A stretch of DNA of 64,000 nucleotides from Candidatus Nomurabacteria bacterium. Its GTDB lineage: Bacteria; Patescibacteriota; Minisyncoccia; Phycocordibacterales; UBA9973. The notes beneath the pieces are model-generated. The model made no database searches and was not told where the DNA came from. It saw only the letters and a program-made list of their open reading frames with translations. How positions within the stretch are numbered: the first letter of the stretch is position 1; every line of letters starts with the position of its first letter. The stretch spans positions 1,285 to 65,284 of the forward strand of contig JAHFNJ010000005.1 in assembly GCA_023267375.1 (NCBI GenBank), in the 5' to 3' direction. This document shows, one piece after another, positions 13,362 through 49,181 of this stretch. The translations under genes were made by a program, and so were the position numbers.

Positions 13362-15641
13362 ATGAAGGAGACACTTGGCACAATTTTTGCCAAATTCGGC
13401 GGCGCACAGAATAAATTGCACCGCCGAATTTATTTGGGAGGCACGCTCATTGCTTTCTCAGTTTTTGTTTTTGCCTTAGTCCTTACGTTTATCGCTTGGC
13501 GATATAATGTGCAAGTATTTAATCTTCAGTCGCAGTTGCGGTTTGATACAGTAAATCACAACGTTGTTGCCGATCTACAGAATAAAGCAAACAGAGATAT
13601 GGATGTCTTGCTTGCAACACAAGGTTTCTTTTCTGCCGCAGCAAGTATCAACCAAAAATCATTTCATGATTTTGTCGGAACACTTGATATTACTTCTCGC
13701 TACCCATCACTCTATGCACTCAACTACATAAAACGTGTTCCTGAAAGTTCGAAAAATATATTCCTCCAGTCGGTTCGTAATGATTCTTCTGTCAACAAAA
13801 AAGGATCACCGAATTTTACGATCACACCTACTACTACTTTTTCAACGTATGATATTTTAACCTACAGCCATGCGCGTGATATACCATTTCCTGCAATAGG
13901 AACAAATGTGAGTGCTGACGCTTCTTTTAAAGCTGCAATCGAACAAGCTCGTGATGAAGCAAAACCCATTGTTTTCAATACGCTCATGTCTACCTCTGAT
14001 GGCACACAGGTGTTTGCCGTGCTTGTACCGATTTATACAAAAACACCGACCCCTGAGACAGTAGCTCTTCGTCGCGCAGCATTTCGTGGCGTTATAGAAG
14101 GGGTATTTGAGTTAAAGTCATTTTTCAATGAAGCATTTCCTAATAAATTTGCATACCAAGGTGTCAACTTTGATGTGTACTATGGCGAGAATCTAATAAA
14201 AGATAATGTACTCTATAGCAATACCGTAAGTCCGGTTCCTGAGAATGAAAATCCTGAGATGCTCCTTGTTAATACAAGCAAGGTGATTGTCGCGAACACA
14301 CCACTCACTGTTACCTTCAGTGCAACACGCCAGGCGGTGGTTGGAGGGGTAACTGCTAAAATTCCACGAATCATTGGTTTGGGTGGTATTTTGGCGAGTC
14401 TATCACTCTTTGTCTTGGTATTGTCGTTTACAACCTCGCGACGTCGTGCTACTGAGCTTGCAAACATGATGACCTCGAGCATCAAGGAAAAAAATGAGCA
14501 GCTCGAAGCAAGTACCGCACTGTTGCAGCACGAGACGCATAAAATTAATGCCATCTTTTCTTCGATGGCAGAGAGTTTGATTGCCATCGATGATCAAGGT
14601 CGTGTGAAGTTGCTGAATCAAGCTGCCTCGGTTACATTGGGAATCGCAGAAGGTGATGCGCATGATAAAAAGATTGAAGAAATATTGCCCCTCTTTAGAA
14701 ACAAAGTACCTATTACTGAAAAGGAATCACCAGTCTATTATGCAATTCGCGAGAAGAGTATTGCTCGAACATTACTTCGTGATGATATGTATACTATGGG
14801 TCGCGATGGGAATACTTTCCCGATTGTGCTTTCTGCAACGTCGCTGTTAAATAAGGCTGATACAGGAGGTGTGTCTGGTATTATTATGTTTCGTGATGTA
14901 ACTGTAGAAAAATCAATTGACCAATCAAAGACAGAATTCGTGTCGCTAGCATCGCACCAGCTCCGCACGCCACTCACCGCTATTGGTTGGTATACCGAAA
15001 TGCTTATGTCAAACGACGTAGGTAAGACAACAAAAAAACAGCGTGAGTATCTTTCCGAAATTTCAACAAGTACCAAACGTATGGTTGACCTTATGAACGC
15101 GCTCCTTAACGTATCACGTATTGATTTGGGCACTTTTGCTATTGAGCCTGAAATGGTTGATGTTACCGAAATCGCAGAGAGTGTCATTAAAGAACAAGAG
15201 CCAACCATTGCGCTTAAGAAAATGAAAGTGACGCATGCATACGATAAGGGAATTCCAAAGATGTCGATGGATCCGCGTCTGACCCGTATTGTGTTCCAGA
15301 ACTTGCTTTCGAACGCCATAAAATATACTCCAGAGAAAGGATCTATCCATATGGCCGTTGAGAAACAGAAAGATAAAATACGCATTTCAGTTTCCGACAA
15401 TGGCTATGGTATTCCAAAATCAAATCAGGTAAAGATTTTCACAAAGCTCTATCGTGCTGATAATATTCTTATTAAAGATACCGACGGCACAGGGCTTGGC
15501 CTCTATATCGTGAAAGAAATTGTGGAACAATCAGGTGGTTCTATTTCGTTCACTTCAGAAGAAAATAAGGGGACAACATTTTATGTCATCTTTCCCAAAG
15601 AGGGGATGAAACCCAAAAAGGGCACAAAAGGGTTATCGTAA
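13362..15641 (+). CDS. Sensor histidine kinase with large periplasmic sensor domain, PAS, HisKA and HATPase_c domains
   Basis: 759 aa. Two TM segments flank a ~290-aa extracytoplasmic domain. H-box is FVSLASHQLRTPLTAIGWYTEML. ATP-binding G-boxes are DNGYGIP...GTGLGLYIVKEIVEQSGG. No adjacent response regulator. Confidence 0.8.
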   Translation: MKETLGTIFAKFGGAQNKLHRRIYLGGTLIAFSVFVFALVLTFIAWRYNVQVFNLQSQLRFDTVNHNVVADLQNKANRDMDVLLATQGFFSAAASINQKSFHDFVGTLDITSRYPSLYALNYIKRVPESSKNIFLQSVRNDSSVNKKGSPNFTITPTTTFSTYDILTYSHARDIPFPAIGTNVSADASFKAAIEQARDEAKPIVFNTLMSTSDGTQVFAVLVPIYTKTPTPETVALRRAAFRGVIEGVFELKSFFNEAFPNKFAYQGVNFDVYYGENLIKDNVLYSNTVSPVPENENPEMLLVNTSKVIVANTPLTVTFSATRQAVVGGVTAKIPRIIGLGGILASLSLFVLVLSFTTSRRRATELANMMTSSIKEKNEQLEASTALLQHETHKINAIFSSMAESLIAIDDQGRVKLLNQAASVTLGIAEGDAHDKKIEEILPLFRNKVPITEKESPVYYAIREKSIARTLLRDDMYTMGRDGNTFPIVLSATSLLNKADTGGVSGIIMFRDVTVEKSIDQSKTEFVSLASHQLRTPLTAIGWYTEMLMSNDVGKTTKKQREYLSEISTSTKRMVDLMNALLNVSRIDLGTFAIEPEMVDVTEIAESVIKEQEPTIALKKMKVTHAYDKGIPKMSMDPRLTRIVFQNLLSNAIKYTPEKGSIHMAVEKQKDKIRISVSDNGYGIPKSNQVKIFTKLYRADNILIKDTDGTGLGLYIVKEIVEQSGGSISFTSEENKGTTFYVIFPKEGMKPKKGTKGLS

Positions 15642-15685
15642 ATAAGCTTTCAAAAACAACCCTTTTTTGCTAAAATGGGCTCCAT

Positions 15686-16396
15686 ATGAAAGACGCACAT
15701 ATCCCAGGCCACCCGCACCCACTCTCAGCTACAATTGAAGAAGCAGTAGCTATTTTTGCTAAAATGGGCTTTTCGGTTGCGCTTGGCCCTGAACTTGAGG
15801 ACGAGTATCACAATTTTGATGCGCTCAATATCCCCAAAGAGCACCCAGCTCGGGATATGCAGGACACCTTTTGGATAAAAAATAAACCAGGGTATGTCAT
15901 GCGGACGCACACTTCCAATGTGCAGATTCGCTTTATGGAGCAATTGGTGAAAGCGGGCAAAACACCGCCGTTTGCGATCATCGTGCCGGGCAAAGTGTTC
16001 CGCAACGAAGCAACTGATGCGACACACGAAATGCAGTTTTCTCAAATTGAAGGATTGGCTATCGGTAAGGACATTACGATGGCGCACTTAAAAGGGACAC
16101 TCCTTGCATTTTTCAAACATTTTTTTGGCGACGATAGCGAGATTCGTTTTCGTCCTTCATTTTTCCCATTTGTGGAACCAGGCGTTGAGGTTGATGTTAA
16201 AACTGGTGGTCGCTGGGTGGAACTTTTGGGTGCTGGCATGGTGCATCCAAAAGTGCTTGAAAACTGCGGTATTGATCCGAAGGTGTACCAAGGCTTTGCC
16301 TTTGGTATGGGCGCTGATCGTTTGCTTATGATGAAAAAGGGTATTCCTGATGTCCGCTACTCTTACCAGGGTGATTTACGGTTTAATCAGTTTTAA
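15686..16396 (+). CDS. pheS: Phenylalanine--tRNA ligase alpha subunit, catalytic core only (N-terminally truncated form, 236 aa)
   Basis: ...ALNIPKEHPARDMQDTFWI...FRNEATDATHEMQFSQIEGL...GRWVELLGAGMVHP...GFAFGMGADRLLMM are the class II motifs of PheS. It begins at a position equivalent to about residue 95 of E. coli PheS. The stop codon directly abuts the pheT ATG. Confidence 0.8.
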   Translation: MKDAHIPGHPHPLSATIEEAVAIFAKMGFSVALGPELEDEYHNFDALNIPKEHPARDMQDTFWIKNKPGYVMRTHTSNVQIRFMEQLVKAGKTPPFAIIVPGKVFRNEATDATHEMQFSQIEGLAIGKDITMAHLKGTLLAFFKHFFGDDSEIRFRPSFFPFVEPGVEVDVKTGGRWVELLGAGMVHPKVLENCGIDPKVYQGFAFGMGADRLLMMKKGIPDVRYSYQGDLRFNQF

Positions 16397-20446: not shown

Positions 20447-21187
20447 ATGGATGAGACTCCTATAAAAAAGACAAACTGGAAACTAATATCTATTACAATA
20501 ATATTAGTTGTTATACAAGCAGCACTAGTTTTTTATGGATTTCTTCTTGTTATTTTTAATGGTCTCGATACTTATAGTCCAGAACTCGTTTTTCAGGGGG
20601 CAATTTTTTTACTTATTGCCACAGCCCTACCTATACCATTTGTACGTTCTGCTAAAAAATCAGGATCGCTTTCTATTCTTAGTTTAAACTTGTTTATTAG
20701 CGGAGCAACTGCTTTATTTTTGATAGGATTACTTCTCTCCTCTATTCTAGGTAGTATACAACACCATAAAGAACAAAAAGACTTTCAAAATAAAACTGCT
20801 ATCTATGCAGATGCTGCAAAAATTCAATATGAAAAAATACTAACTGAAACAAATGAAGTAAAAATTATAGGGTGGATGAATAACAATTCAGGAACTAATC
20901 TTTTGCAGACTGACAAGGGTTTCGAAGTCCACTTCAATGATATGTCATATGTACCTGAAGTAGTTGACTATATAAATAAAAACGTAATTGGGCGTACTGT
21001 TGATGTTGTTGTTCCTAGTTTTGTCTCTGAAAGTACAATATTTTTTGTTGATTCTAACGGCGGAGCTACGGATTCCACGATTAATTCAATACCTGTATGC
21101 GGATGTGATCTTAATGTTGATGGTAAAACTCTGACCCCTATTTTATCAAATATGCTACAGCAGCTTTTTAAGGAAGGAAAGTATTAA
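20447..21187 (+). CDS. Hypothetical membrane protein (3-4 TM) with extracytoplasmic C-terminal domain
   Basis: 246 aa. Hydrophobic N-terminal half. Markedly AT-rich (~30% GC) relative to the flanking gyrB and rdgB genes. Confidence 0.5.
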   Translation: MDETPIKKTNWKLISITIILVVIQAALVFYGFLLVIFNGLDTYSPELVFQGAIFLLIATALPIPFVRSAKKSGSLSILSLNLFISGATALFLIGLLLSSILGSIQHHKEQKDFQNKTAIYADAAKIQYEKILTETNEVKIIGWMNNNSGTNLLQTDKGFEVHFNDMSYVPEVVDYINKNVIGRTVDVVVPSFVSESTIFFVDSNGGATDSTINSIPVCGCDLNVDGKTLTPILSNMLQQLFKEGKY

Positions 21188-43053: not shown

Positions 43054-46035
43054 ATGATTTCACGAATCTATGTCGCTCAAAAAGCGATAGATAGCCGTGC
43101 CAAAGTGTTGCAAAATTCCTGGAATAAATTGGGTCTTTCTGGTCGCGTGACGGGTGTGACATTGCTTGATTCGTACACCATCCACGCTTCGCTTACATCT
43201 TCGCATCTCAAAAAAGCAGCTTCTGCGCTTTGTAATCCCTCACTTGAAATTGCGACTATCAGCAAGTTGCCGAAAGTTGCCTCGTATACGTATGTCATTG
43301 AAATCGGCTTTATGCCAGGGGTAACAGACAATGTTGCTAAGACGGCAGAAGAGGCGATCGCGGACACGCTCCATCGACCCTTTAAAAAGGGTGAAGCAAT
43401 TTATACCTCAAAAGTTTTTTTTGTTTCAGGAACACTTTCCAAAAAAGATGCTGAACTAATCGCCGGATCACTCCACAATCCGCTTATTGAGCGTGCTGCT
43501 ATCTTTTCAAAAAATGAAATTGCCAAGAAGGGAACATTGCCACTTGTGGTACCAGAAGTGGTACTACCAAAACGTACGCCAGTCATCCCTGTATCGCTCG
43601 CCTTGCCGGACGAAGAACTCATTCGTATCGGTAAAGAGGGTATCTTTGATGCTGAAATCGGTACGCGTCGCGGTCCGCTTGCGCTTGATCTTGCTTCAAT
43701 GCGTGTTATTAAAGACTATTTCAAAAAACTGAAACGCAATCCGACCGACATTGAGCTTGAATCGCTTGCGCAGACGTGGAGCGAGCACTGCAAGCACACT
43801 ATTTTTGCGAACTCGATCGACGACATCAAAGATGGTTTGTATAAAACCTATATCAAAGGCGCGACGAATATTATCCGTCAGAAAAAAGGAACAGATGATT
43901 TTTGTCTCTCTGTTTTCTCTGACAATGCTGGCGGTATTATGTTTGATAATGATTATTTGGTAACGCATAAAGTTGAAACGCACAACAGTCCTTCAGCGCT
44001 TGATCCGTTTGGTGGGGCCATCACTGGTATCGTCGGTGTGAATCGCGATACGATCGGTTTCGGTCTGGGAGCTAAACCTGTCGCAAACTGCTACGGCTTT
44101 TGTTTCGGTGATCCGTTCGATACGCGTCCGCTCTATCGCGATAAAAATCGCACACAAAAAATGCTTTCACCCCGCCGCATTATGGATGGGGTAATCAAGG
44201 GTGTGAATGTCGGCGGCAACTGCTCAGGCATTCCAACCTTAAACGGTTTCGTGCGATTCGATGACCGTTTCCGCGGCAAGCCACTCGTCTTTGTGGGAAC
44301 AGTAGGACTCATGCCGCGCGAGAAAAAAGGAAAACGGCTTGATGAAAAAGAAGCGAAGGCTGGCGACTACATCGTGGTGGTTGGTGGACGTGTGGGTGCC
44401 GACGGTATTCATGGGGCGACATTCTCTTCAGTGGTGATGGATACATCGTCGCCAGCAACTGCAGTGCAGATCGGGGATCCCATTACCCAGAAAAAATTAT
44501 CTGACGCGATTGTGAAAGAAGCGCGTGATCTTGGACTGTACTCAAGCATTACCGACAACGGTGCTGGCGGTATTTCTTGTTCAGTCGCAGAAATGGCAAA
44601 GGAGTGCGGCGGGGCGAAAGTACATCTCGAAAAAGTGCCGCTGAAGTATCCTGGCCTTCAGCCATGGCAGATTTGGATCTCTGAATCGCAGGAACGCATG
44701 ACACTTTCGGTGCCGAAGAAAAAGTGGAAGGCATTTCAATCGCTTATGAAAAAGCGCGGTGTTGAAGCGACTATTATCGGTGAATTCACGAGCTCAGGAA
44801 ACATGGTAGTGAACTGGAAAGGTAAGAAGATTATGGATTTGCCGCTTGAATTTTTGCACAATGGTTTGCCAAAACACCAACTTCAATCTGAGCAAGTTGT
44901 TCACACATACAAAACACCAGCACTTCCGAAAGGTGGCGATCGTACAAAGATACTTGAAGAATTGGTGGCGGTAGGGAATATCGGTAGTTTTGATTGGATT
45001 TCTACACAATACGATCACGAGGTACAGGCTGGATCAGTGGTGAAGCCACTTTCCGGTCGGGGTCGTATCAACACTGATGCACAGGTATTTCGTCCACTGC
45101 TTTCATCAAAAAAAGGTGTCGTTCTTTCGTCGGCGCTCTATCCTTCATATTCTGATCTCGACACCTACGCTATGGCAGCAGCAGCAATTGATACAGCAAT
45201 CAGAAATGCGGTAGCAGTTGGCGGATCGCTCGATATGCTCGCTATCCTCGATAACACCTGTTGGTGCTCCTCGTATGATAAAAATCGCCTAGCAGAACTC
45301 GTGGATGCCATCCGTGCTTGCTACGATGTGGCCGTGGGTTTTGAAACGCCGTTTATTTCCGGAAAGGACAGCATGTTTAATGATTTCAAAGGCTACGATG
45401 GGAAAGGGAATCCAGTAAAAATTTCTATTCCGCCAACATTACTCATTTCAGCTATTGGAGTAATGTCTGATCTCCACAAAGCTGTTACGCCAGAATTTAA
45501 AAATGCTGGTGATTCTATTTACTTACTCGGTGAGACAAAAGATGAACTTGGTGCATCTGAATATTTCAAACTCCTTGCGAAAAAACAGAAGTCTGAAGCA
45601 CTTGGGAAAAATGTGCCGAAAGTTGATATTGAGAAAAACAAAAAGACGTATCGTGCACTTGAAAAGGCAATTGGGCTTGGCTTGGTTGCATCGTCGCTCT
45701 CAGTGACTTCTGGTGGGCTTGCTGCAGCGCTTGGAAAAGCGGTTGTTGGGGGTATGCTTGGTGCAACTATCTCACTCAAGAATCTTCCTGGTGAAAAACT
45801 GTCTGTGGATCAAGCGCTTTTTTCTGAAAGCCAAGGACGTATTTTGGTTTCAGTTGCGCCGCAAGATATTACCGATTTTGAAGAAATCATGAAAGAAGTA
45901 CCACATGCAGAAATCGGTATTGTTTCAGCTGGGCGTGCACTCGTTGTGAATGATGCAAAAAATAAAGTAGTCGTTAAGACAACCGTTGATAAATTGAATA
46001 AGGCGTACCGAATGTTATCAACAAAAGTCGCATAA
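43054..46035 (+). CDS. purL: Phosphoribosylformylglycinamidine synthase subunit PurL with N-terminal PurS-like/N-domain extension
   Basis: 993 aa. Two AIRS/AIRS_C repeats (...GGAITGIVGVNRDT..., ...DNGAGGISCSVAEMA...). The ~220-aa N-terminal region resembles the N-domain of large-type FGAM synthase. Confidence 0.85.
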   Translation: MISRIYVAQKAIDSRAKVLQNSWNKLGLSGRVTGVTLLDSYTIHASLTSSHLKKAASALCNPSLEIATISKLPKVASYTYVIEIGFMPGVTDNVAKTAEEAIADTLHRPFKKGEAIYTSKVFFVSGTLSKKDAELIAGSLHNPLIERAAIFSKNEIAKKGTLPLVVPEVVLPKRTPVIPVSLALPDEELIRIGKEGIFDAEIGTRRGPLALDLASMRVIKDYFKKLKRNPTDIELESLAQTWSEHCKHTIFANSIDDIKDGLYKTYIKGATNIIRQKKGTDDFCLSVFSDNAGGIMFDNDYLVTHKVETHNSPSALDPFGGAITGIVGVNRDTIGFGLGAKPVANCYGFCFGDPFDTRPLYRDKNRTQKMLSPRRIMDGVIKGVNVGGNCSGIPTLNGFVRFDDRFRGKPLVFVGTVGLMPREKKGKRLDEKEAKAGDYIVVVGGRVGADGIHGATFSSVVMDTSSPATAVQIGDPITQKKLSDAIVKEARDLGLYSSITDNGAGGISCSVAEMAKECGGAKVHLEKVPLKYPGLQPWQIWISESQERMTLSVPKKKWKAFQSLMKKRGVEATIIGEFTSSGNMVVNWKGKKIMDLPLEFLHNGLPKHQLQSEQVVHTYKTPALPKGGDRTKILEELVAVGNIGSFDWISTQYDHEVQAGSVVKPLSGRGRINTDAQVFRPLLSSKKGVVLSSALYPSYSDLDTYAMAAAAIDTAIRNAVAVGGSLDMLAILDNTCWCSSYDKNRLAELVDAIRACYDVAVGFETPFISGKDSMFNDFKGYDGKGNPVKISIPPTLLISAIGVMSDLHKAVTPEFKNAGDSIYLLGETKDELGASEYFKLLAKKQKSEALGKNVPKVDIEKNKKTYRALEKAIGLGLVASSLSVTSGGLAAALGKAVVGGMLGATISLKNLPGEKLSVDQALFSESQGRILVSVAPQDITDFEEIMKEVPHAEIGIVSAGRALVVNDAKNKVVVKTTVDKLNKAYRMLSTKVA

Positions 46036-46037
46036 GT

Positions 46038-47765
46038 ATGGAAACTCGCAACTGTCAAAACTGCAAAAAAGATTTTACGATCGATCCAGAAGATTTTTCT
46101 TTTTATGAGAAGATAAAAGTCCCACCACCAACATTTTGTCCTGAGTGTAGAAATATACGTAGGACTATTTGGAGAAACGAAAGAACTCTCTATAAGAATG
46201 AGTGCAATCTTTGTAAAAAAGGCATTGTTTCAATTTATTCCCCAGATAAACCATACAAGATTTATTGTGATAAATGTTTTCACGGAGATGGATGGGATCC
46301 TTTTGAACACGGTGTCGATGTAGATTTTACAAAACCATTCTTACAGCAATTTATGGAGTTGCAATTGAAAGCCCCCCGTCTCTATTCTCTTGTTTTCCAG
46401 AATCACAACAGCGAATATGTAAACGGTGCCGCATTCAATAAAAACTGTTACTTGATCTTCGTAAGCGATTACAACGAGGACTCGATGTACTCATATTCTC
46501 TGGTAAAATCGAAGAATACGCTCGACTGTCTCAATTCTTCTGAGTGTGAACTGTGCTATGGGGATATCTCATGTAATAAATGCTATCGCGTTATTTTTTC
46601 AGAGGATTGTCAAAATTCACAAGAATTGATGTTCTGCAAGAATTGCGTCAATTGTAGCGATTGTATCCTTTGTGTGAATCAAAGGAATAAGAAATACTGT
46701 ATAGAAAATATACAGTATACAAAAGAAGAGTATCTGAAAAAGAAGGAAGAATTATATACCGCAAGCAGCAAGAGTTTAGATTTACTGAAGAAGAGATTCA
46801 ATGAATTTAAGAAAGGTTCCATCAATAAATATATTAATGGATTCCAAAACCAGGACGTTTTGGGAAATTTTGTAAATAATTCCAAGAACTCAAAATTTAT
46901 TTTTAACTCTGAAAATGTTGAAGATTCAAAGTATATAAATCATGGCAATAAGATAAAATCTGTTTATGATGCGTACGTTGTAGTCGATGGAACTACTGAT
47001 AGCTATGAAATAGTTTCCGCGATTGCTTTAAATAATGTTATTTCTGGGTATTCTATATGGCATGATTACAATGTTTTCTATTCTGATACTTGCGAGAATT
47101 CAAATAATCTATTCGGTTGCGTCGATTTGAAAAATAAATCCTACTGCATACTCAATAAACAATACACAAAAGAAGAATATGAAAATCTTGTTCCTAAAAT
47201 CATCAAACATATGGAAGAGATGCCTTATACAGATAGATTGGGAAGAACGTATAAATATGGTGAATTTTTTCCAGCAGAATTAACCCCATTTTGCTATAAC
47301 GAAACAATTGCCCAGGAATATTTCCCATTAACTAAAGAACAAGCTTTAGAACAGGGATATGAATGGAAAGATAAAGAAGAAAGAAGTTATAAAATCGATA
47401 TCGCATTAGAACATATTCCAGATGTTATTGAGGAAGTAAAAGATGATATTACCAATAAAATAATAGAATGTGGTCATAAAGGAAATTGTAATCATCAATG
47501 TACAGAAGCATTCAAGATAATTGCTGATGAGCTTAAATTTTATAAAAGAATGAATCTTCCTATACCGCAACTCTGTCCTAACTGCAGACATTACGAACGA
47601 TTGTTACAACGCAATCCTCTGAAACTTTGGCATCGTTCTTGTATGTGTTCCCAAGACAATCATGATCACTCAGGAAATTGTCAAAACGAGTTTGAAACTT
47701 CGTATGCCCCAGATAGACCTGAAAAAGTATATTGTGAAAGTTGTTACCAAAAAGAAGTATTGTAA
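46038..47765 (+). CDS. Cys-rich multi-zinc-ribbon protein of unknown function inserted in the pur operon
   Basis: 575 aa, about 45 Cys. Related N- and C-terminal modules: F.ID.EDF.FY.KI..P.P..CP.CR..R.......L......C.........Y.PD.P..I.YC..C. Internal repeats of CxxC...YC(I/L)(E/L)N.QYTKEEY were found. About 30% GC against ~48% for the flanking purL and purQ. The ATG lies 3 nt after the purL stop. Confidence 0.55.
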   Translation: METRNCQNCKKDFTIDPEDFSFYEKIKVPPPTFCPECRNIRRTIWRNERTLYKNECNLCKKGIVSIYSPDKPYKIYCDKCFHGDGWDPFEHGVDVDFTKPFLQQFMELQLKAPRLYSLVFQNHNSEYVNGAAFNKNCYLIFVSDYNEDSMYSYSLVKSKNTLDCLNSSECELCYGDISCNKCYRVIFSEDCQNSQELMFCKNCVNCSDCILCVNQRNKKYCIENIQYTKEEYLKKKEELYTASSKSLDLLKKRFNEFKKGSINKYINGFQNQDVLGNFVNNSKNSKFIFNSENVEDSKYINHGNKIKSVYDAYVVVDGTTDSYEIVSAIALNNVISGYSIWHDYNVFYSDTCENSNNLFGCVDLKNKSYCILNKQYTKEEYENLVPKIIKHMEEMPYTDRLGRTYKYGEFFPAELTPFCYNETIAQEYFPLTKEQALEQGYEWKDKEERSYKIDIALEHIPDVIEEVKDDITNKIIECGHKGNCNHQCTEAFKIIADELKFYKRMNLPIPQLCPNCRHYERLLQRNPLKLWHRSCMCSQDNHDHSGNCQNEFETSYAPDRPEKVYCESCYQKEVL

Positions 47766-47814
47766 AAATGACCGACAACTAATTTCAATGAAAAAAATAA
47801 CCAAAAAAATAAAT

Positions 47815-48591
47815 ATGAAACCAAAAGCGTTGATTCTTTCCGGTTACGGACTCAACTGTGAGGAAGAAGCAAAATTTGCTTTTGAGATGGCCGGCGGGGA
47901 AGGAGATATTATACACATCAACGATTTGATTGTGAAGCCAGCGATGCTTTTGAAATACCAGATTTTGGTTTTTCCTGGTGGTTTTTCATACGGTGATGAT
48001 ACAGGATCCGGTAAAGCGTATGCGAATAAATTGCGGAATCACTTGAAAAAGGAACTCGATGTATTTATCAAGCGCGACACACTTACGATTGGTATTTGTA
48101 ATGGTTTTCAGATTATTACAAGCTTGGGCCTTGTGCCTGGCGCATTAACGCACAACGAAAGCGCGCAGTACATTGATCGCTGGGTTGATTTGAAAGCAGA
48201 AGGAGATAGCCCATGGCTTACCGGGATTGAGAAAATATCGGTGCCAATTGCTCACGGCGAAGGACGTTATATTATCGACGAAAAAGAATATAAGAAAATG
48301 AAAGCAAATGGTCAGATTGCATTTACCTATACCAAAGGGGATATGTGTGCGTACCAAAACTTACCATCAAATCCAAACGGAGCGATGTATGATATTGCTG
48401 GGGTGCTGTCATACGATGGCCGCGTGTTAGGTATGATGCCGCATCCAGAACGTGCCCTCTTTTTCCATCATTTACCAGACTGGACCGAAAAACGTGAACA
48501 ACTACGCCGTAAAGGTATTACTGAAATCCCTGAAGAAGGTCCAGGGCTTGCGCTTTTTAAGAACGCTGTAAACTACTTTAAGAATAAATAG
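47815..48591 (+). CDS. purQ: Phosphoribosylformylglycinamidine synthase glutamine amidotransferase subunit PurQ
   Basis: Starts MKPKALILSGYGLNCEEE. ...GICNGFQII... is the catalytic Cys and ...MMPHPER... is the His. The track start at 47662 is an upstream extension overlapping the previous gene. Confidence 0.8.
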   Translation: MKPKALILSGYGLNCEEEAKFAFEMAGGEGDIIHINDLIVKPAMLLKYQILVFPGGFSYGDDTGSGKAYANKLRNHLKKELDVFIKRDTLTIGICNGFQIITSLGLVPGALTHNESAQYIDRWVDLKAEGDSPWLTGIEKISVPIAHGEGRYIIDEKEYKKMKANGQIAFTYTKGDMCAYQNLPSNPNGAMYDIAGVLSYDGRVLGMMPHPERALFFHHLPDWTEKREQLRRKGITEIPEEGPGLALFKNAVNYFKNK

Positions 48592-48635: not shown

Positions 48636-49181
48636 ATGAAAAAGTCGTCTCTTACGATGGATAATGAATGGTATGTCATCACCGGGGCTCCGTGTTCAGG
48701 TAAGACAACTGTTTTAAATGGGCTTGTTGCTCGTGGCTACAATGTCGTGCCAGAAATTGCTCGAGCTTACATTGACGAGTCACTAGCAAAAGGTGTTTCG
48801 GTTGAAGAATTGCGTAAAGATGAAGTTTCATTTCAAAAAGAAATTTTGCACAGAAAAATTGAAGAAGAGAAAAAACTTTTACCGCACACAATAGTATTTT
48901 TTGATCGTGGTATTCCAGATACCTGGGCATATCTGGTATTCCATGGCATCAAAGATAAAGCACTTTTACAGAAGTCTCTTCTCGGAAAGTATCAAAAAGT
49001 ATTTATCCTTGATCCCTGTCCATTCAAGAAGGATTATGCTCGGATAGAAACAGAAGCTGACCAGAAAGAACTCCATCGGCTCATTGTCGAAGGGTACGAC
49101 AAAACAGGCATCCCGATCGTGCACGTGCCAATTCTTGAGACGAAAGAAGCGCGTGTTGATTTTATATTGAAACACCTATAA
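48636..49181 (+). CDS. P-loop NTPase, AAA_28 / nicotinamide-riboside-kinase-like family
   Basis: 181 aa. Walker A is ITGAPCSGKTT. ...VVPEIARAYIDE...VFFDRGIPDTWAY... resembles the NadR-C/NRK-type small kinase fold. Confidence 0.55.
   Translation: MKKSSLTMDNEWYVITGAPCSGKTTVLNGLVARGYNVVPEIARAYIDESLAKGVSVEELRKDEVSFQKEILHRKIEEEKKLLPHTIVFFDRGIPDTWAYLVFHGIKDKALLQKSLLGKYQKVFILDPCPFKKDYARIETEADQKELHRLIVEGYDKTGIPIVHVPILETKEARVDFILKHL

Follow-up and report, generated by a model that had tools for sequence, protein, structure and literature searches.

A gene lodged between purL and purQ of a Nomurabacteria genome belongs to a large, undescribed Patescibacteria family with predicted terminal zinc modules

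We analyzed a 64,000-nucleotide stretch of a Candidatus Nomurabacteria genome (assembly GCA_023267375.1, contig JAHFNJ010000005.1, positions 1,285 to 65,284 of the forward strand; hereafter, the window), in which the purine biosynthesis (pur) operon carries, between purL and purQ, an intact open reading frame (ORF) of 575 amino acids with an ATG start (46038..47765, + strand), here called ZnR. The gene is a member of a large family that is specific to Patescibacteria, and the sequences of related operons indicate that it was inserted into a purL/purQ junction whose two genes are normally coupled. In the explanation that we consider best, with a probability of about 0.45, ZnR would encode a cytoplasmic adaptor that depends on zinc and that is expressed together with the pur operon as its guest.

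Results

ZnR at the purL/purQ junction

A preliminary description, made by a model from the sequence of the window, placed ZnR between purL and purQ, and both neighbors are confirmed by Pfam. Upstream is purL (43054..46035, +), encoding a 993-residue formylglycinamidine ribonucleotide (FGAM) synthase II with AIRS, AIRS_C and FGAR-AT_linker domains; downstream is purQ (47815..48591, +, with its ATG at 47815), encoding FGAM synthase I, the glutaminase (GATase_5, 7e-73), a 258-residue product identical to database entry P0121. As read from the sequence, only 2 nt separate the purL stop from the ZnR start (TAA-GT-ATG; spacer at 46036..46037, +), and the 49-nt spacer between ZnR and purQ (47766..47814, +) lacks a Shine-Dalgarno sequence and any promoter or terminator signal. 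Around the gene, sites that resemble promoters or terminators occur at chance level only. From this arrangement we infer that ZnR is co-transcribed with purL, and its translation is probably coupled to that of purL; the 2-nt gap and the lack of promoter or terminator signals above chance support the earlier suggestion that the gene exploits expression of the operon. Searches of Pfam and NCBIfam returned no match to a purine-pathway family, in keeping with the description of ZnR as no known component of that pathway.

To place this arrangement among related genomes, we used two samples, one centered on the family (79 loci) and one centered on pur operons (53 metagenome loci, de-replicated to 43). 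In relatives without an insert, purL and purQ are closely joined: empty junctions usually have a 4-nt ATGA overlap (12 loci) or a gap of -1 to +6 nt, and the gap lies between -4 and +6 nt in 23 of the 28 loci in which purL directly precedes purQ. Among the nearest PurQ relatives, the ancestral arrangement with adjacent purL and purQ is seen in L085 (gap of 43 nt), L086 (1 nt) and the contig of P0129 (15 nt). Because purL and purQ of relatives overlap by 4 nt or nearly abut, the comparison identifies ZnR as an insertion into a normally coupled junction, and the part of the preliminary description that proposed an insertion stands. When a junction is occupied, it is often ZnR that shares the ATGA overlap with purL (a gap of -4 in 5 loci). 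Of the 19 other loci listed, 18 have a spacer of 1–58 nt from ZnR to purQ, and L137 has one of 158 nt. A stretch at the 3' end of purL (TGTTATCAACAA), considered as the leftover of an earlier upstream ZnR copy, was judged a chance resemblance (p ∼0.09); the C-terminus of PurL is conserved, and a C-terminal alignment found it unchanged relative to 6 relatives.

Among the family-centered loci, the order purL-ZnR-purQ was found in only 3 of 79 (L041, L046 and L050), which had suggested that ZnR is rare in pur operons. The pur-centered sample overturned this reading, since 18 of its 38 informative purL/purQ junctions hold ZnR, with 18 empty and 2 occupied by another gene, and ZnR is also present in 4 of 23 purN-purD intervals. 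Homologs are thus regular occupants of the purL/purQ junction in related bacteria. No function is known for them, they belong to several paralog lineages, and most copies of the family stand elsewhere.

The copies at purL/purQ do not share one origin. Two clades, of 8 and 7 loci, are 74–78% identical within themselves, and the copies of one of them, clade A, are 70–76% identical to copies located after dnaJ in other genomes. Five singletons remain (the window copy, two copies in L097, and those of L109 and L124), and for each of them some copy outside pur operons is more similar than all the other pur-embedded ones. The copies at purN/purD (L041b, L086, two in L089, L103 and L136) are mutually distant (at most 57% identity). 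At least 7 distinct lineages are therefore lodged at purL/purQ, and about 6 at purN/purD. The nearest relatives of the window copy (80%, 67% and 62–64% identical) stand in unrelated surroundings, next to genes such as murD/efp, trmB and further ZnR copies. Since it is closer to such non-pur copies, the comparison indicates that the window copy reached the junction independently of the other pur-embedded copies, and for all five singletons, this one included, descent from a single ancient insertion behind every pur-embedded copy is rejected.

In a tree of PurQ and PurF, every one of the 16 loci in one host clade (at least 75% identity) carries ZnR, drawn from three partly interleaved lineages. 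Occupancy in the remaining host clades is sporadic, and the window is the sole member of its own group. Because tandem copies are present at the junction in L097 and L122, duplication and differential loss may explain part of the pattern in the 16-locus clade, and a single insertion may account for the copies of host group 3, with later tandem duplication and loss of different copies in different loci.

Other genes use the same sites. In L084, the closest relative of the window (PurQ 80% identical), the purL/purQ junction holds a 210-residue ORF (L084:7372-8004) with weak matches to HSDR_N_2 (E 0.002) and NERD and the motif (E)RIDILI...AIELKYK, and thus resembles a PD-(D/E)xK nuclease. By Pfam, purN/purD intervals hold IS200-like Y1 transposases (Y1_Tnp) in L129 (+, 137 residues, 2e-6) and L131 (-, 195 residues, 7e-11) and a PRK-type kinase in L093; in L089 (∼14900-15900) two ZnR copies flank a RhuM-Fic/DOC gene, and a C15 peptidase and a low-molecular-weight phosphatase are the guests in L041. 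Further guest ORFs, in L105, L115 and L050, have no Pfam identity. The purL/purQ and purN/purD junctions are permissive, recurrent landing sites, and ZnR genes are by far their commonest occupants.

This distribution raised the possibility that selection favors expression of the pur-embedded ZnR paralogs together with FGAM synthase, where they might serve, for instance, in operon-specific regulation, in sensing or in the assembly of PurL and PurQ. The numbers of occupied junctions and intervals, the constant occupancy of the 16-locus clade and the adoption of the ATGA coupling to purL are all in favor, and the repeated recruitment of different paralogs to one operon could reflect selection; paralog families with a single member per operon are typical of regulators. 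However, half of the related pur operons, those of the nearest relatives of the window included, do without ZnR. At least seven unrelated lineages occupy one junction, and no single orthologous paralog can be called the pur form; clade A orthologs are located after dnaJ in other genomes, and pur operons account for merely 3 of the 79 family-centered loci. Transposases, Fic and nuclease-like genes are found in the same two junctions, and neither Pfam nor NCBIfam gave any similarity to PurS, PurR or another pur protein. We therefore consider an accessory or regulatory role in the pur operon unlikely.

Several further features of these operons were recorded. In the window, a 181-residue AAA_28 P-loop protein (48636-49181, +; Pfam 1e-34; guanine-plus-cytosine (GC) content ∼0.38) is encoded between purQ and purF, which overlap by 4 nt in relatives, so this gene is a second guest of the same operon. 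The first ∼200 residues of PurL (1–200; 43054-43650), which precede the FGAR-AT linker, have no domain assignment and may be a fused PurS-like region. The purL of L085 is split into two ORFs. Six loci of host group 3 (L112, L114, L116 and L126-L128) carry an extra gene of 607–624 residues, 1–2.8 kb upstream of purL, with ∼27% identity to PurF, and in L110 and L135 purN directly follows purQ, and purF is not at its usual place.

A large family of old paralogs

The gene is not an oddity of one genome. A search of 5.8 billion protein sequences found at least 7,970 homologs at E ≤ 1e-3 (8,000 candidates were scored), and the best 120 are nearly all 560–600 residues long, cover the whole query and are 49–80% identical to it. 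Those homologs that carry names are all hypothetical proteins of Patescibacteria (Nomura-, Giovannoni-, Staskawicz- and Yanofskybacteria, and Paceibacterota; the NCBI taxonomy lists Candidatus Paceibacterota as the phylum Minisyncoccota). Searching 1.84 billion cluster representatives with a hidden Markov model gave 5,316 clusters at 50% identity, with 2,230 at E ≤ 1e-30. A scan of one genome per species confirmed at least 580 relatives, all in metagenome-assembled genomes of Patescibacteria type except one labeled Burkholderiales. That locus (L006, JAMPXW010000002.1) has the gene content and order of the Nomurabacteria loci L017, L021 and L071, comprising a VirD4-like gene, DnaJ, ZnR copies, an arginase-family gene, cysteinyl-tRNA synthetase and an AI-2E-like transporter, and its label is probably a binning or labeling error.

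No meaningful family match for the ZnR protein was found in Pfam, NCBIfam, PHROG, PADLOC or the PDB sequences, and the PADLOC defence models gave 0 matches. A literature search on the family, on the zf_Tbcl accessions and on treble clefs in Patescibacteria found no description. The window gene is accordingly intact and belongs to an undescribed family, very large, old and present in many copies, that is restricted to Patescibacteria (Minisyncoccota, or Parcubacteria-type lineages). Compared with four homologs, it has a proportion of nonsynonymous differences (pN) of 0.12–0.25 and a proportion of synonymous differences (pS) above 0.8 (saturated), and it is a real gene under purifying selection. 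The closest homolog, P0002 (L080:5426-6865, 80% identity), is called as 479 residues and lacks the N-terminal zinc module, which could reflect truncation, a frameshift or a mis-called start.

The family is present in multiple copies. Of the 20-kb loci examined, 32 have one ZnR copy, 21 have two, 12 have three and 7 have four, and higher numbers are also seen (5 copies in 3 loci, 6 in 3 and 7 in 1); one assembly holds eight copies in two loci. Neighboring tandem copies are merely 30–54% identical, and identity reaches no more than 62% in the 178 pairs drawn from a shared locus or assembly, so that none is above 70%, while 95 pairs from different genomes exceed 70%. Each genome therefore holds old, distinct paralogs whose orthologs are found in other genomes.

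Base composition and the question of mobility

The preliminary description called the gene a compositional island, with ∼30% GC against ∼48% for its neighbors. The low GC content is real (0.332, an outlier at z=-3.5 against the 37 other long ORFs of the window), although the difference is smaller than stated, with 0.458 for purL, 0.429 for purQ and 0.424 for the window. Among the 38 long ORFs, codon positions 1 and 2 are strongly affected (GC12 0.346, z=-3.9), whereas neither third-position GC (GC3 0.304, z=-1.3) nor codon usage is an outlier. The protein is enriched in Asn, Lys, Tyr, Ile, Phe and Cys, and GC content is below that of the neighbors in 74 of the 79 family-centered loci (mean difference -3.8 points). 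Because GC12 is low, GC3 and codon usage are ordinary, and the trait is family-wide, the low GC content is attributed to amino acid composition and gives no evidence of recent transfer. AT-richness thus does not indicate a horizontal origin, and an orphan gene or horizontally transferred island is ruled out by the huge family, its shared low GC content and the amino acid composition that causes it. In L041, L046 and L050, GC3 is lower by 7–14 points, which hints weakly at exchange among genomes. In codon usage, the real outlier among the ORFs of the window is one of 246 residues (20447-21187, +; GC 0.328, GC3 0.206) with the largest codon-usage distance and no NCBIfam match.

It was also proposed that ZnR is selfish or mobile, propagating itself by homing or in some other way, entering the junctions of conserved operons and profiting from their expression. 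Like other guests of conserved operons, free-standing homing endonuclease genes among them, ZnR is found at a junction of coupled genes, is patchy among close relatives and has arrived repeatedly and independently at the same two junctions, where it replaces the ancestral coupling and shares its sites with IS200-like transposases, Fic and the PD-(D/E)xK-like ORF; the reduced GC content of the family and the GC3 deficits of three loci point the same way. Several results weaken this proposal. The within-genome ceiling of 62% identity argues against recent duplication or transposition, and the paralogs are ancient, uniform in architecture and under strong purifying selection. At 575 residues, ZnR is unlike homing endonucleases in having no nuclease domain or fold, and profile, PDB and BFVD searches gave no recombinase or transposase either. 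No direct or inverted repeats flank the window copy, and no boundary motif is conserved; candidate cassette-like motifs, seen as enriched k-mers in the flanks, proved to be the coding ends of neighboring copies in tandem arrays. Searches of IMG/VR viral contigs, INPHARED phages and PLSDB plasmids gave no copies, the GC3 and codon usage of the window copy are ordinary, and the supposed remnant in purL is due to chance. A selfish element is, on this evidence, quite unlikely.

Predicted architecture and zinc sites

The window protein was used as the reference row of two family alignments (A1 and A2), and its structure was predicted with AlphaFold2 from an alignment of 114 homologs (predicted local distance difference test (pLDDT) 85, predicted template modeling score (pTM) 0.84; the values were 77 and 0.77 for an earlier model built on 39 sequences). 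The family shares an A-M-M-L-A' architecture, with a uniform length of 540–600 residues and profile matches that span positions 1–577. In the window protein this begins with an N-terminal double zinc module (residues 1–95; 46038..46322, +; pLDDT 88–95), followed by a first beta-solenoid module, M1 (residues 100–228; 46335..46721, +), ending in YCIxNxQYTKEEY. A helical hairpin (residues 229–262; 46722..46823, +; predicted helices 229–239 and 244–259) joins it to a second solenoid module, M2 (residues 263–377; 46824..47168, +; pLDDT 63–88). An acidic domain, L (residues 378–475; 47169..47462, +; pLDDT 87–97), and a C-terminal double zinc module (residues 476–575; 47463..47762, +) complete the protein, for which four zinc sites and two beta-solenoids are predicted.

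Two internal relationships noticed in the preliminary description were confirmed by hhalign with slices of the family alignment. The N- and C-terminal modules are homologous (residues 7–81 against 486–570, E 7.8e-22), as are M1 and M2 (residues 106–240 against 255–388, E 1.6e-28), both of which end in YC(I/L)xNxQYTKEEY. In the N-terminal module, site 1 (C6/C9/C34/C37) is predicted to be a treble clef of the zf_Tbcl type, followed by an Arg-rich helix, and site 2 (C56/C59/C77/C80) has a CxxC-x17-CxxC spacing that can be read directly from the sequence. The C-terminal module has site 3 (C478/C484/C488/C513/C516) and site 4 (C535/C548/C566/C569), and the protein ends in a conserved YCExCYQxEVx. 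The cysteines of these sites are 93–100% conserved in the N-terminal and 97–100% in the C-terminal module, and the model is confident in both (pLDDT ∼88–97). The window protein retains every family-invariant residue: the 16 terminal cysteines, F22/Y23, R38, W86, N224, Y232, N373, G408, N421, R517, R521, Y556 and Y570.

Pfam zf_Tbcl (PF13451) matches residues 3–43 of the window N-terminal fragment at 17.9 bits (E 0.003), under the gathering cutoff of 24, which the homolog P0009 exceeds (24.8 bits, E 2.1e-5), and 8 of 39 family members match at E up to 1. Two regions (residues 49–82 and 547–573) match zf_Tbcl_2 (PF23477) at 11.3 and 16.9 bits, below its cutoff of 27, and NCBIfam, including TIGR04272, gave no match of the window protein at E up to 1. 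Proteins of these three families resemble ZnR in that each of its terminal modules is predicted to pair a zf_Tbcl-like treble clef with a CxxC-x17-CxxC ribbon, but they are small, mostly single-domain and uncharacterized, whereas ZnR has two such pairs capping 575 residues, and the window protein scores under the curated cutoffs. A domain of the CxxC-x17-CxxC type binds zinc in small proteins of Methanosarcina mazei, as measured by inductively coupled plasma mass spectrometry (PMC12704099). Zinc-finger modules such as those at the two ends are potential binders of nucleic acid, as had been suggested.

The protein contains 35 cysteines and 10 CxxC motifs, not the ∼45 cysteines first reported, and only ∼16–17 of them make up the four terminal Cys4 sites. 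In M1, a ladder of Cys, Ser and Asn recurs with 3-residue spacing and a sequence periodicity of 9 residues, and residues 183–222 are predicted to form regular strands with a 12-residue period (pLDDT 80–96). M2 is poor in cysteine (C352, C361 and C370), and the cysteines in the CxxC runs of M1 are variably conserved. Because of this variable conservation and of the 3-residue spacing in a predicted beta-solenoid, the model suggests that the solenoid cysteines are probably core residues of a narrow solenoid rather than zinc ligands.

The L domain, for which neither a family nor a fold was matched, exceeds the rest of the protein in both conservation and acidity (net charge -10) and has the motif GEFFPxELSPFAYNETxAQEYFPLTKE; G408 and N421 are invariant there, and Y420, E422 and W443 are at least 90% conserved. 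The calculated isoelectric point is ∼6 for the whole protein and ∼8.1 for the mildly basic termini, and the core is acidic. With no transmembrane segment and no signal peptide detected, the protein is predicted to be cytoplasmic.

Structure searches gave no close relative. Foldseek against the PDB found nothing significant (best E 0.3–6, template modeling score at most 0.2), and a BFVD search returned small phage zinc-ribbon proteins only. The top 50 PDB matches of the 114-homolog model, all non-significant, are mostly left-handed beta-helix proteins (such as gamma-carbonic anhydrases, PglD, GlmU and LpxD), the only consistent class among them. Unlike these, ZnR has no Hexapep match in Pfam and no catalytic His triad, and its coil of ∼12 residues with a Cys/Ser/Asn ladder differs from the 18-residue coils of hexapeptide proteins; narrow, Cys-lined coils of 12 residues may be similar to the antifreeze beta-helix of Tenebrio. 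Two further matches were rejected, one to the Med15_N KIX domain in 16 of 39 members, which was judged a spurious match to a 33-residue helix (residues 365–397), and one to a PI-PfuI endonuclease subdomain, which is at noise level (E 0.049, below cutoff).

A protein with four conserved Cys4 sites, many more cysteines and multiple copies per genome might serve in zinc storage or buffering or as a metallochaperone, and CutA1, a gene for divalent-ion tolerance, is the immediate neighbor in 9 loci. Buffering has no need, however, for conserved domains without cysteine such as L and the solenoids, or for ancient, subfunctionalised paralogs, and the solenoid cysteines are merely variably conserved; we regard such a role as highly improbable.

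VirD4-like ATPases beside ZnR genes

In the family-centered loci, genes next to ZnR are 86% co-directional with it, with a median gap of 38 nt. The sole strongly recurrent neighbor other than ZnR itself encodes a soluble ATPase of the VirD4/TraD/TrwB type, which matches T4SS-DNA_transf (1e-7) and TrwB_AAD_bind (1.3e-7) in Pfam, the VirD4-like CD1115 family (1.4e-15) in NCBIfam and mad8 (2e-12) in PADLOC, with a weak PADLOC match to HerA; no transmembrane segment was found in these ATPases. Of 35 VirD4-like genes, 24 are immediately beside a ZnR gene, on either side, all 24 in the same direction and with a median gap of 60 nt, and the ZnR copies concerned are drawn from ∼19 subfamilies. Loci centered on ZnR have 35 such genes in 1,315 kb, against 0 in 567 kb of pur-centered loci, and there is none within the window. 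Clustering of the ATPases resolved no subfamilies with which co-diversification with ZnR could be compared.

The longer ATPases (600–830 residues) carry a C-terminal CxxC-x17-CxxC ribbon that matches TIGR04272 above its cutoff (8.8e-13), and hhalign aligned this ribbon with ZnR residues 51–80 (94% probability, E 1.4e-7). Adjacency and the shared zinc-ribbon domain together suggest that ZnR and the ATPases may be functional partners. In the long forms (L021:4563-6749, and genes in L016, L023, L033, L039, L047, L049, L051, L052, L059 and L071), the ribbon is followed by a long low-complexity tail, and 8 of the 11 end in (R/K)E(V/I)PEDxL, for example REVPEDVLRKILE.

The ATPase gene is often preceded by genes for a 460-residue membrane protein (C6, with 1–2 transmembrane segments) and a 173-residue membrane-anchored protein (C18), neither of which has a family match. 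C18 (L015:7781-8302, and in L014, L012, L018 and L025) is encoded between the membrane protein and the ATPase and has an RNDLAH motif reminiscent of HEPN RNases, with no match in Pfam or NCBIfam.

VirD4-like type IV coupling proteins (T4CPs) are abundant in bacteria of the Candidate Phyla Radiation (CPR), with 5,713 reported in 2,918 genomes, 148 of them near virB4, and the authors of that survey raised possible exaptation and left the function open (bioRxiv 10.1101/2025.01.22.634366). ZnR resembles the partners and substrates of T4CPs in its frequent adjacency to the ATPases and in the zinc ribbon that it shares with the long forms, but the loci differ from T4CP systems in having no relaxase, HUH motif or type IV secretion system channel genes, and most ZnR copies, that of the window included, have no ATPase neighbor. 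We also considered that ZnR is cargo, an effector-like substrate translocated by a machine with a VirD4/FtsK-type ATPase. Arrays of 2–7 divergent copies stand beside VirD4-like genes, often after C6 and C18, much as arrays of substrate genes accompany secretion ATPases, and the C-terminus of ZnR is strictly conserved. Yet the ATPases have no transmembrane segment, no secretion channel genes are adjacent, and few CPR coupling proteins lie near virB4. The protein itself is predicted to be tightly folded around four zincs and has no signal sequence, its paralogs are highly conserved rather than diversifying, and no ATPase is found near the pur-embedded copies. A translocated substrate is thus very doubtful.

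Discussion

The window gene is an ordinary member of an extraordinary, undescribed family. The purine pathway genes around it are intact, and ZnR, which probably plays no part in purine biosynthesis, is benign for the operon that hosts it. As to what the family does, we tentatively favor a zinc-stabilised adaptor or specificity factor that would act with VirD4-like ATPases, a possibility that is drawn from gene order. In such a mechanism, a nucleic acid or a protein partner would be held by the terminal zinc modules, the solenoid core would provide a rigid interaction surface, and the several paralogs of a genome would work with the soluble, "orphan" VirD4/TraD-like ATPases that are encoded beside many of them and that have the same zinc ribbon.

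A bolder extension, which is somewhat unlikely, is that the family supplies the partner so far missing for the thousands of orphan, soluble ATPases of Patescibacteria and forms with them an unrecognised cytoplasmic zinc-finger/ATPase system. Such a system might, for example, handle DNA or RNA derived from the host, with the ancient paralogs serving as specificity subunits wired into housekeeping operons such as pur. If this were true, it would be a new cellular system specific to CPR bacteria and built on an undescribed combination of folds.

The family is also of interest apart from its mechanism. The operon junctions described here are a clear case of recurrent landing sites for guest genes, and for the so far unexplained orphan VirD4-like ATPases of CPR bacteria, ZnR is a definite candidate as a partner. 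Although the genomes of Patescibacteria, which account for a substantial part of bacterial diversity, are tiny, several 1.7-kb ZnR paralogs are retained in them and are among their larger investments in a protein that has no name, model or structure. A description of the family would resolve thousands of their hypothetical proteins.

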